From: Escherichia phage KKP 3715
Length of the DNA stretch: 64,000 nucleotides
Sequence record: OR067834.1
Reading direction: 5' to 3' (one strand)
The notes below the pieces were generated by a model, which made no database searches, was not told the DNA's origin, and saw only the letters and a list, made by a program, of their open reading frames with translations. The translations under genes were made by a program, and so were the position numbers. How positions within the stretch are numbered: position 1 is the first letter of the stretch; every line of letters starts with the position of its first letter. This document shows positions 58,203-64,000 of the stretch, one piece after another.

Positions 58203-58250
58203 CGCATATTCTCCAATTAGTTAATTACCACAAGGTGCGGAGCACCCTTC

Positions 58251-61756: not shown

Positions 61757-62071
61757 TTATCCTTTCAGGCAGTTAGTATGTGCATAGTTTAAGTTATCCA
61801 AGGTAAATTCTTTACCTAGTTCTATTCTCTTACCACACTCATAGCATTTTTGTGATAGGTAATGTTTTTGCACATTGTGCAGTTTACGGATTTGTTTACG
61901 AGTAGGCTTAGCTACAAAGAAGTAGTCATAAGTACGTTCCCTGTTATCAGCTACAGATACCTGCCAACGAGCATCTAACGACATACCACAGGTGAAACCT
62001 CTAGATGCCATATGCCTTTCTAATGTTTCTACTAATTTCTGAGAGTTATAACGGTTACATAGTACACGCAT
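61757..62071 (-). CDS. early protein, paralog family member 1 (KPTxKQIR motif; C-terminal CxxC...C)
   Basis: 104 aa; AAGGAG RBS; shares W...Y.F.AKPTRKQIRKL with two other early ORFs; ends with CYECGKRIE...NC. Confidence 0.45.
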   Translation of the reverse strand: MRVLCNRYNSQKLVETLERHMASRGFTCGMSLDARWQVSVADNRERTYDYFFVAKPTRKQIRKLHNVQKHYLSQKCYECGKRIELGKEFTLDNLNYAHTNCLKG

Positions 62072-62176
62072 CTTGATTACTCCTTACTCTAAGTTATCTG
62101 CTTCTGTTTACATTTAAGTTTTAGTGACTCTTCGTCGAAAAGCCCCTAAAAGTTAAACTTAGTTTATCGCTGAGTT

Positions 62177-62208
62177 AAAAATAAAAGGACTACCCGAAGG
62201 TAGTCCCT
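62177..62208 (-). terminator. Rho-independent terminator (early region)
   Basis: On the - strand: perfect 8-bp GGACTACC-TTCG-GGTAGTCC followed by TTTTATTTTT. Confidence 0.6.
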
Positions 62209-62215
62209 TAGTTGA

Positions 62216-62512
62216 TTAGAAAGTCAGTTTACGAGCATATTTATTCTCGTCTGCTGGGATGTCAGCAGCCTCTGCTTTCACACGACGAAGTTGAACTTGC
62301 AGGTTAATGATACCTTCTTCACCTGGTTCCAGGTTCTGAGCATATTCGATTAACTGTTCCAGCAAATCGTTCTGTGCACAACGCATAGCACGGAAGTCAG
62401 CATTGCTGCTGTTAGTAGGCAGTGGTTCCTGAGTATCCAGTGGAATACCAGTAGGCAGAGAGATGAATTTCTCATCCTCAGAGCCTTCATTAGCAATATA
62501 ACCAATGTTCAA
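62216..62512 (-). CDS. hypothetical acidic early protein (TTG start in track)
   Basis: 98 aa, strongly acidic; no ATG near the 5' end, only a TTG with weak RBS, so the start is uncertain. Confidence 0.3.
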
Positions 62513-62534
62513 CCAGAACTGAGCCTTAGGCTTA

Positions 62535-62600
62535 GCAGTTTTTAGTTTCAGTGGTAGCAGCAGCGTTAGATTGACCGAAAGTGAATTTTTGAATAGACAT
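62535..62600 (-). CDS. unannotated 22-codon ORF with strong RBS
   Basis: ATG at 62600 preceded by GGAGAG; [22 protein letters not shown]; first ORF downstream of the 62711-62725 hairpin. Confidence 0.25.
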
Positions 62601-62710
62601 TTTGTACTCTCCAGATAAATGATTGTTTGATTTATGGGTTTGTCCGTCGGTGACTAAACCCAAGAAAAGACTTAAGATTTCAATGATTAGTGGATGCATT
62701 TACATCCTTT

Positions 62711-62725
62711 AGACGCGGAGCGTCT
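62711..62725 (-). promoter_or_regulatory. candidate virion-RNAP hairpin promoter (AGACGC-GGA-GCGTCT)
   Basis: 6-bp stem, 3-nt GGA loop, no U-tract; same core as the hairpins at 63045 and 63907; upstream of leftward early ORFs. Confidence 0.45.
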
Positions 62726-62731
62726 TGATAT

Positions 62732-63010
62732 TTACTTGAAGAAATGTGGATAGTCTTCTATGAATTGAGCTAAGTCATGTACATGCTCAATGACAGCTTT
62801 ACGCTTGCACTGGCGTACTTGTTTAGCCGTAGGCTTAGATGTGAAAGCATACTGATGTACAGATGCAGACATAGGGTTATCATCAACTGATATCTCTACA
62901 TCTACGGCCCAGTGTGCAGGATTAGAAGTGTACATCATTTGAGATTTAGTAAATGTAGTTGAATGATTAAATGGTGGTACATAGTGGATTGAGGTATGAA
63001 TAGTACGCAT
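62732..63010 (-). CDS. early protein, paralog family member 2 (KPTxKQVR motif)
   Basis: 92 aa; GGAGAT RBS; HWAVDV...YAFTSKPTAKQVRQ aligns with the other two paralogs. Confidence 0.45.
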   Translation of the reverse strand: MRTIHTSIHYVPPFNHSTTFTKSQMMYTSNPAHWAVDVEISVDDNPMSASVHQYAFTSKPTAKQVRQCKRKAVIEHVHDLAQFIEDYPHFFK

Positions 63011-63044
63011 AGCTTAATCTCCAATAGTTGAATGATATCCAATA

Positions 63045-63057
63045 GACGCGGAGCGTC
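63045..63057 (-). promoter_or_regulatory. candidate virion-RNAP hairpin promoter (GACGC-GGA-GCGTC)
   Basis: 5-bp stem, GGA loop, about 35 nt upstream of the ORF starting at 63010. Confidence 0.45.
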
Positions 63058-63091
63058 GTTACCTTACAGGCAACGCCTGCGGTCTGGTTTT

Positions 63092-63454
63092 TTAAGCATA
63101 CTGTGCAGTTTCTTTACGGAATGCACGTCGTAGTTTACGGATTTGTTTCTTTGTAGGTTTAGCATGGAATGTATGACATTCAATAATACGTAGTCTGTAC
63201 TTGATGACACCCTCTTCAGTGAACCATAGTTTCCAGCAAGCAAGGCTATGACCACCAAAGGTTATTCCTGGTTTTACGTAGTAAACATCAGTATTGAATC
63301 GCATTTTTACTTCTCCGTTAGCAGGATGGATTTTACTTTTTTGACCATTACCATAGTCAGTATTTACCAGAGGTTTTCCCATATGTACGGAAACCATAAC
63401 AACAAGTGCAAGGGCAATAACAATTGTGATTAGTGCATCTATTACTTTGCTCAT
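63092..63454 (-). CDS. early protein, paralog family member 3 (N-terminal membrane anchor, KPTKKQIRKL motif)
   Basis: Start moved to the ATG at 63454 (track start is TTG); N-terminal hydrophobic helix IDALITIVIALALVVMV; C-terminal CWKLW...HTFHAKPTKKQIRKL. Confidence 0.4.
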   Translation of the reverse strand: MSKVIDALITIVIALALVVMVSVHMGKPLVNTDYGNGQKSKIHPANGEVKMRFNTDVYYVKPGITFGGHSLACWKLWFTEEGVIKYRLRIIECHTFHAKPTKKQIRKLRRAFRKETAQYA

Positions 63455-63540: not shown

Positions 63541-63864
63541 TTAGTCTTTAGTCAGGATGTCAATTACTTTTGAATATTCTGCATTATAGATACGAGCGTT
63601 CTCTGAATCTTTGCAGAATTCTTCAATACTTTTCTTACGCATAGTCTCGTTCATAGCTGTTTCTTCAGCTAATTTGTTTACGAATGTATGCATTTCTAAT
63701 TTAGTACGAATGGCTTGTTTCTCTGCCATAGTAGATACATATGAGTTAAGCATACCTACTGCTTTAGTAGCTGTGCCAAATGTATCTGCAACAGTAGTAG
63801 CAGCAGAGTTAACAGTACCCAGTAAAGTTCCTGCGGTCATACGTACAGTAGCGGTAGTAGTCAT
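63541..63864 (-). CDS. hypothetical early protein
   Basis: 107 aa; first ORF downstream of the hairpin at 63907-63921. Confidence 0.4.
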   Translation of the reverse strand: MTTTATVRMTAGTLLGTVNSAATTVADTFGTATKAVGMLNSYVSTMAEKQAIRTKLEMHTFVNKLAEETAMNETMRKKSIEEFCKDSENARIYNAEYSKVIDILTKD

Positions 63865-63906: not shown

Positions 63907-63921
63907 ACATGCGGAGCATGT
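63907..63921 (-). promoter_or_regulatory. candidate virion-RNAP hairpin promoter (ACATGC-GGA-GCATGT)
   Basis: 6-bp stem, GGA loop, about 45 nt upstream of the ORF starting at 63864. Confidence 0.4.
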
Positions 63922-64000
63922 GTAACGTGTAAGGTGGGGTAGGGTAGTGGCTACAGGGTCAACATACCGGGGGGGATGGTTGAGTGTAAGGGTGTAGCCC

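Follow-up and report, generated by a model that had tools for sequence, protein, structure and literature searches.

Three early-region genes of Escherichia phage KKP 3715 assigned by sequence to the TifA (DUF7279) family

The type III toxin ToxN is inhibited by gp61.4 of phage T4, an early protein that has been named TifA (Srikant et al. 2022, PMC9391042). The tifA gene shares a transcript with dmd, made from an early promoter, and its amplification lets T4 escape plasmid-borne toxIN. Loss of tifA leaves the plating of T4 normal where no active ToxN is present but lowers it about 100-fold on cells with chromosomal toxIN (PMC9391042). Here, three small genes of Escherichia phage KKP 3715 (OR067834.1), designated paralogues A, B and C and located between positions 61757 and 63454 of a 64,000-nucleotide stretch of that record (the window), are compared with tifA. 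The analysed sequence represents the reverse-complemented genome of a G7C-like coliphage (Gamaleyavirus, Schitoviridae).

In the model published by Guegler et al. (2023, PMC10853763), TifA has a sheet in its N-terminal part and a basic helix at its C-terminus, and RNA is bound via this helix, whose cap is a conserved Pro-Thr. TifA needs this RNA binding to engage and inhibit ToxN, the endoribonuclease toxin of the abortive-infection system toxIN: in the variants P53A/T54A and K55A/R56A/R59A, neither activity remains. ToxN becomes part of a large ribonucleoprotein complex, where it is probably trapped on 16S rRNA. RB69 TifA binds RNA, single-stranded DNA and double-stranded DNA with no evident sequence preference, and cellular RNA accompanies it in purification when ToxN is absent. 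A TifA loop is proposed to tune toxin specificity. Of ten family members screened for cross-neutralisation, those of T2, T4, T6 and RB69 neutralised ToxN and the other six neutralised no toxin (PMC10853763). T4 Dmd (gp61.5), an inhibitor of the RNase toxins RnlA and LsoA that is co-operonic with tifA, is likewise a small early phage substitute antitoxin. Unlike TifA, Dmd belongs to PF17587, has no sequence relationship to the proteins considered here and acts by direct protein binding rather than by RNA-dependent inhibition.

Family membership and the capped basic helix

A first-pass annotation of the window had proposed that three open reading frames (ORFs) encode a family of small early proteins sharing a KPTxKQ(I/V)R motif. 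The three ORFs are present on the minus strand, those of A and B at the positions listed in Table 1 and the third, which encodes 120 residues, at 63092–63454. Pairwise BLASTP among A, B and C gives E values of 1e-5 to 4e-4 over alignments of 13–36 residues. All three proteins exceed the gathering cutoff (24.5 bits) of the Pfam family PF23945/DUF7279, with scores of 35.3 bits for A, 63.7 bits for B and 50.8 bits for C (residues 71–115 of the 120-residue product). They are members of the related PHROGs 7840, 12748 and 2375, none of which has an assigned function. A family hidden Markov model (HMM), built from 58 family sequences, matches exactly three of all six-frame ORFs of the window, with E values of 1e-26 to 1e-29, and the next match has an E value of 0.11. 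The common region spans ~60 residues and consists of an N-terminal strand, an A.W.V.V strand and a helix start with the pattern F.AKPT.KQIRK. The proposed family is therefore borne out by BLASTP, Pfam and HMM comparison as a whole domain, with a similarity that is far beyond chance and wider than the motif. The shared block, which had been placed at the C-terminus of the proteins, is in fact central and marks the start of the C-terminal helix.

That the motif is a chance or low-complexity match, or that the ORFs are not genes, could be argued from the shortness of the pairwise alignments. Profile, structure and selection data already refute this explanation: the profile scores lie far over the curated threshold, the three HMM matches stand clear of the background, the predicted structures of A and B share a fold at high confidence, a Shine-Dalgarno sequence precedes each of the three ORFs, and the ratio of nonsynonymous to synonymous substitution rates (dN/dS) is well below 1. 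Moreover, all 139 homologues collected carry the Pfam domain. Clustered at 50% identity, the family accounts for 66 clusters in a set of 1.84 billion representatives, and all members are 46–186 residues long.

The first-pass annotation recognised no known family. The route to TifA started from the annotation of Pectobacterium phage CB1, which records a likeness of the B orthologue to a T4-like ORF. A relaxed tblastn search with the CB1 protein gave weak matches to gene 61.4 of T4 and about 500 T-even relatives, and Pfam then provided the family. T4 gp61.4 scores 72.7 bits on DUF7279 and is matched at an E value of 4e-10 by a family HMM built without T4-like sequences, and hhalign aligns the family with T4 TifA at a probability of 95.8% (E value 8e-9). 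In direct BLASTP comparisons with T4 TifA, the E values are 2.6e-8 for B, 1.4e-5 for C and 0.03 for A, and A matches JS98 TifA at 4e-5. By these sequence criteria, A, B and C are members of the TifA family (DUF7279; prototype T4 gp61.4), which two mechanistic papers have described (PMC9391042, PMC10853763). They thus add a further example to a counter-defence family already described and do not represent a novel type of gene. A literature search under the name DUF7279 found no papers, a sequence search of PDB chains found no relative at an E value of 1 or better, an NCBIfam search gave no match, and structure searches with family members returned nothing informative.

Structure prediction with AlphaFold2 gives concordant models of A and B, with a common strand, strand, helix core as in the TifA fold. 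The B model (predicted local distance difference test score, pLDDT, of 89) places a β-meander within residues 2–56 and a C-terminal helix at residues 62–86, which starts right after T61. In the A model, the domain (pLDDT 82–89; core about 85) is predicted to be arranged in the order strand-helix-strand-strand-helix, with strands at residues 2–8, 36–41 and 47–52 and a helix at residues 58–67.

In an alignment of T4, RB69 and CB4 TifA proteins with A, B and C, the motif coincides with the TifA element K-P53-T54-(K55)-(R56)-Q-(I/V)-R59. The Pro, Thr, Gln and R59 positions are invariant in this alignment. Across 179 family proteins, the Pro is present in all 179, the Thr in 174, the Gln in 175 and the R59 equivalent in 164. 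The equivalents of K55, R56 and R59 are R, K and R in A, K, K and R in C, and A, K and R in B, so that all three proteins retain the Pro-Thr cap and a basic cluster, with one of the three basic positions lacking in B. From the pattern T-x-x-Q with a preceding Pro and a following Ile/Val, we infer a classical helix N-cap with a capping box and a hydrophobic staple. The exposed face of the helix holds the conserved basic residues (xKQ(I/V)RK... of the motif). Isoelectric points are 9.6 for A, 8.0 for B and 10.2 for C (family median, 9.7). Homology, fold and the conserved functional residues make it likely that A, B and C bind RNA through this helix.

The CxxC...C cluster that had been reported at the end of one of the proteins is present in A, and its exact form is corrected to C76-x2-C79-x18-H98-x2-C101, a C2HC zinc-ribbon-like tail. 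A CxxC...(H/C)xxC cluster occurs in ~42 of the 179 family proteins, in some of which the zinc ribbon is N-terminal and not C-terminal. A C-terminal peptide with the look of a short linear motif (...HEEIVISVLGME, WEGIHCDVAGL) recurs among other DUF7279 members. Add-ons of the C-terminal-peptide or N-terminal zinc-ribbon kind were noted in family proteins P0125, P0140, P0145, P0146, P0059, P0080, P0176 and others, and in P0153 and P0179. G7C gp1.2 and gp2.3 were checked as family or zinc-ribbon members, and neither qualifies.

Origin and selection of the three lineages

A, B and C are 21–30% identical to one another. In a BLASTP comparison that includes T4-like TifA, the E values between the paralogues are 5e-5 to 3e-3, which is no better than those to the T4-like homologues. 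Each type has orthologues at 50–96% identity in other phages. Type A orthologues were found in 57 phage records, 13 of them with the zinc-ribbon tail, from Gamaleyavirus and from Klebsiella or Salmonella N4-like phages. For type B just 10 phage records were retrieved, those of PD205 and of N4-like phages of Pectobacterium and Klebsiella, and for type C tblastn retrieved 49, including Felix O1-like and ST32-like myoviruses. Copy number was determined from 14 GenBank, IMG/VR and Logan loci; retrieval with type A gave three IMG/VR loci. Copy number ranges from one to three among close relatives: the sampled relatives have one or two copies in different type combinations, and three are found only in this phage and a near-identical contig. 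N4 has none, and its gp3–gp13 include no DUF7279 member.

Because the mutual distance of A, B and C is about that to T4-like TifA and closer orthologues exist elsewhere, the three genes represent old lineages that were brought together and not a recent triplication within one genome. The first-pass annotation had regarded them as triplicated genes under diversifying selection. A recent triplication would be in keeping with the occurrence of three family members inside 1.7 kb, with their strongly different N-terminal parts and with the segmental amplification of tifA that occurs in T4 under selection (PMC9391042). The low identity between the paralogues, the 50–96% identical orthologues of each type in other phages and the varied combinations of one or two types in relatives render a triplication followed by diversifying selection very improbable, as does a dN/dS value below 1 in every segment.

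Selection was analysed in type A orthologues by pairwise NG86 dN/dS, both gene-wide and by segment. The overall dN/dS of type A is 0.28, compared with 0.09–0.21 for neighbouring genes. The sheet/loop part gives 0.32–0.41, and the motif and helix show a dN of 0 at a dS of 0.8. Apart from 1–2 of about 50 pairs, dN/dS values above 1 are absent among the type A comparisons. Type A thus evolves faster than its neighbours with no gene-wide positive selection, and the segment values indicate a strictly constrained helix and a fast-evolving remainder in which positive selection is undemonstrated.

Gene models and early promoters

The features of the locus are collected in Table 1. Over the first 3 kb, the early region is 86–95% identical to those of G7C, F22, E20, St11Ph5 and others. 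These relatives match over only 53–74% of its length, which makes the early region a mosaic.

Table 1. Coordinates of the three paralogues and of neighbouring features in the window
Feature	Position	Strand	Remarks
Paralogue A (G7C gp2.2 orthologue)	61757–62071	−	104 aa; AAGGAG Shine-Dalgarno 7 nt upstream
Paralogue A, TifA/DUF7279 domain	61874–62071 (aa 1–66)	−	PHROG 7840
Paralogue A, C2HC zinc-ribbon-like tail	61769–61846 (aa 76–101)	−	PHROG 25572
Paralogue B	62732–63010	−	92 aa; best DUF7279 match of the three
Paralogue C proper (MRFNTD...)	63092–63304	−	70 aa; GGAG Shine-Dalgarno, GGAG-N9-ATG
gp1.1-like transmembrane peptide gene	63307–63454	−	48 aa; PHROG 26357, E 8e-20 over aa 1–41
Homopolymer	63337–63342		T6 on + strand, A6 on coding strand; extra base yields fusion ORF
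gp1 homologue (N4)	63541–63864		context gene of A, B and C
gp2 homologue (PF26984, N4 middle-transcription cofactor)	62216–62600	−	two ORFs here from extra A at 62543
Hairpin promoter	63908–63920	−	upstream of gp1; heads gp1–gp1.1–paralogue C unit
Hairpin promoter	63045–63057	−	template 5'-GACGC GGA GCGTC-3'; predicted start 63040, 30 nt before ATG of B
Hairpin promoter	62712–62724	−	directly downstream of B, upstream of gp2; same 15-nt TAGACGCGGAGCGTC
Hairpin promoter	58234–58246	−	upstream of RNAPII small-subunit homologue
Intrinsic-terminator-like hairpin	62184–62209	−	after gp2, upstream of A; 11-bp stem, then T run

The 120-residue ORF had been described as a membrane-anchored family member. 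The anchor belongs to a separate upstream gp1.1-like gene, whose 48-residue product is outside the TifA family and which is joined to paralogue C by a 1-nt frameshift. Over 5,911 nt, Logan contig L007 (SRR24296945) departs from the window at three single bases only, and in each case the window has one additional base in a homopolymer (63342, 62543 and 58247). At 63337–63342, the T6 of the window corresponds to T5 in L007, the sole mismatch across 420 nt, and the gene calls of L007 comprise a 48-residue gene followed by a 70-residue gene whose product is identical to paralogue C proper. In the five-base version, the upstream ORF ends in GNGQKVKSILLTEK before its stop codon, matching the C-terminus of G7C gp1.1 (GNGQKVKSILLMDK and stop).

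An authentic 120-residue fusion, in which the TifA domain would be tethered to the inner membrane, is the reading of the sequence as deposited, where the ORF exists and is annotated as WLW40999.1 of phage KKP 3715. It hinges on one A in an A5/A6 run and is improbable for several reasons. Deletion of one A brings back the conserved gp1.1 C-terminus (QKVKSILLTEK followed by a stop), and all relatives of paralogue C are 70-residue proteins that begin at MRFNTD or an equivalent Met. A second additional base in the same sequence, at 62539–62543 (A5 in the window, A4 in L007), splits the gp2-family gene, which is intact at 127 residues in L007 and in E20. Since gp2 is needed for N4 middle transcription, its disruption points to sequencing error; homopolymer errors in the deposited KKP 3715 sequence are the most likely source of both the 120-residue protein and the split gp2. 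Even with a real extra base, the internal Shine-Dalgarno sequence and ATG would give the 70-residue protein. A relationship of the anchored copy to N4 gp8 (PF25713, a replication inhibitor) was also considered and rejected; no ORF of the window matches PF25713, on which N4 gp8 itself scores 68 bits.

Two further annotation problems are found among relatives. The gp2 homologue, a cofactor of N4 RNA polymerase II (RNAPII) that binds single-stranded DNA, is labelled 'integrase' or 'RNA polymerase RNAP1 subunit A' in the records of E20, PD205, IME11, G7C and St11Ph5; these labels look like propagated misannotations. In St11Ph5 (MG208881.1), the type A orthologue at 1764–2099 is interrupted, with the domain start (MRTLCNRYNSQKMINMLQP) in one ORF and the rest in another, and a truncated type A coding sequence at 1875–2102 is all that the record annotates. 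This gene is either a pseudogene or the result of another sequencing error.

The proximity of the three genes to promoter hairpins, as claimed in the first-pass annotation, holds. A pattern of the N4 virion RNA polymerase (vRNAP) promoter type (CC-N4, a 5-bp stem ending in GC, a GGA loop and the complementary stem) has four sites in the 64 kb, all on one strand, which is the template of these genes, and all in the early region. The same pattern has three sites in N4, at 90, 559 and 4548. The window hairpins contain every determinant reported for N4 vRNAP promoters, namely −8G, −9C, −10G, −11G, −12A and +1C (PMC4496689). Early expression of the three paralogues, as in the TifA family, is predicted from their gp1–gp2 position and from the hairpins at 63908, 63045 and 62712. 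B is the first gene behind the 63045 promoter. Because the terminator-like hairpin precedes A, transcription of A would have to rely on read-through or on a further promoter.

Identical promoter hairpins flank B on both sides, since the same 15-nt sequence lies at 63042–63058 and 62709–62725. In relatives, the slot between gp1.1 and gp2 is occupied by type B, by type C or by the unrelated gp1.2, often with its own hairpin. In SP5M, where the slot gene is type C, and in St11Ph5, a hairpin lies directly upstream of the slot gene. The promoter-flanked slot of B looks like a site of cassette exchange by recombination between promoter hairpins. Two other observations concern the promoter regions. 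The homopolymer difference at 58247 is the base that flanks the stem of the 58234–58246 hairpin, and a G-rich plus-strand stretch (ggtggggtagggtagtgg ... ggggggatgg) at 63925–64000 lies just upstream of the gp1 promoter, near the would-be left genome end or terminal repeat.

Candidate function

A, B and C resemble T4 TifA and its T2, T6 and RB69 homologues in their DUF7279 domain, their size range of 60–100 residues, the sheet-plus-basic-helix architecture predicted for A and B, and predicted early expression. They share with these proteins the invariant Pro-Thr helix cap and the basic residues that are required there for RNA binding. In contrast, A, B and C are only 23–30% identical to them, and the β2-β3 loop, through which the T4 and RB69 proteins are predicted to contact ToxN, has an unrelated sequence and a different length here. 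The genes would be transcribed from N4-type hairpin promoters by an injected RNA polymerase, and neither dmd nor any other part of the T4 'anti-TA island' is found next to them. Three copies are present here compared with one in T4, and A bears the zinc-ribbon tail.

Closer counterparts are found in N4-like phages. The TifA homologue of Pectobacterium phage vB_PatP_CB4 / CB1_02 (Cbunavirus) is the orthologue of B (56% identity over the full length, E value 7e-37) and is encoded close to the left end of its genome, following an annotated hairpin promoter. The host genus differs. G7C gp2.2 (PHROG 7840) is an orthologue of A and occupies the same position, immediately following gp2 and the terminator. 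It is a short 61-residue form without the zinc ribbon and is the single family member of G7C, in which gp1.2 is unrelated.

With moderate confidence, we propose that A, B and C are early RNA-dependent inhibitors of host RNase-type defence toxins with differing specificities. The anti-defence role suggested in the first-pass annotation is supported, through membership in the TifA family, as the best reading, because the only known role of the family is the inhibition by TifA of the abortive-infection toxin ToxN. A, B and C would be produced within minutes of infection and would bind RNA through the conserved helix. The divergent sheet/loop region of each protein, together with the zinc-ribbon tail in A, would capture a different host RNA-targeting toxin or nuclease, and the three lineages would widen the range of defences, and hence of hosts, that the phage can overcome. 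The dN of 0 in the helix alongside a faster sheet/loop part agrees with the published idea that the loop tunes toxin specificity.

Several points weigh against this proposal. The CB4 homologue, the closest assayed relative of B, was well expressed and neutralised none of seven type III toxins, a panel that included ToxN of five species, Vibrio and Serratia ToxN and E. coli TenpN. Five further homologues from outside the T4 clade likewise neutralised none of the seven toxins though they were expressed. Because these six proteins failed, only a single clade of the family has proven ToxN inhibition, and the CB4 result provides no positive functional transfer to B. Within the proteins themselves, B has no basic residue at the position equivalent to K55 and an isoelectric point of only 8.0, and the zinc-ribbon tail of A is predicted by AlphaFold2 at low confidence. 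The infection programme differs as well. The shut-off of host transcription by T4 is the trigger that frees ToxN, and N4 is not known to impose a T4-style shut-off; an N4-like phage may therefore face ToxN less often. Action of A, B and C on ToxN-type toxins specifically is, at best, doubtful.

The main rival explanation is that A, B and C are general RNA-binding host-takeover factors, whose basic helix would act on rRNA or mRNA and alter translation or RNA stability without a toxin target. It draws on the nonspecific nucleic acid binding of RB69 TifA and its co-purification with RNA when ToxN is absent, on the six of ten assayed family members that neutralised no toxin and on the RNA-binding helix as the strictly conserved part. 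The sole demonstrated role of the family is nevertheless counter-defence, as T4 tifA knock-outs are impaired only with toxIN, and the distribution of one to three copies among close relatives and none in N4 is the pattern of an accessory gene rather than of a core takeover function. We therefore regard a general takeover role as rather unlikely. Returning to counter-defence, a more specific form of it can be offered tentatively: the three lineages may be specificity-diversified RNA-dependent traps, each for a different host RNA-targeting defence nuclease, which need not be a type III toxin, with the zinc ribbon as a second binding module. DUF7279 would then be a general modular 'RNA-glue' anti-nuclease scaffold that is not specific to ToxN and, if so, would span N4-like, T4-like, Felix O1-like and ST32-like phages.

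The new points are modest: three old lineages coexist in a single N4-like genome, they are placed behind virion-polymerase promoters, and the zinc-ribbon fusion recurs. The database record is corrected for the 120-residue protein and the split gp2 of KKP 3715. The analysis provides a candidate function, RNA-dependent inhibition of host RNase toxins, for three 'hypothetical' early genes and for the widespread gp2.2 of Gamaleyavirus. Since no toxin tried so far has yielded to TifA relatives from outside the T4 clade, a good place to seek the real targets of these relatives is a phage such as this one, which maintains three divergent copies under immediate-early promoters. Such targets bear on host range, which is relevant to the use of N4-like phages in therapy.

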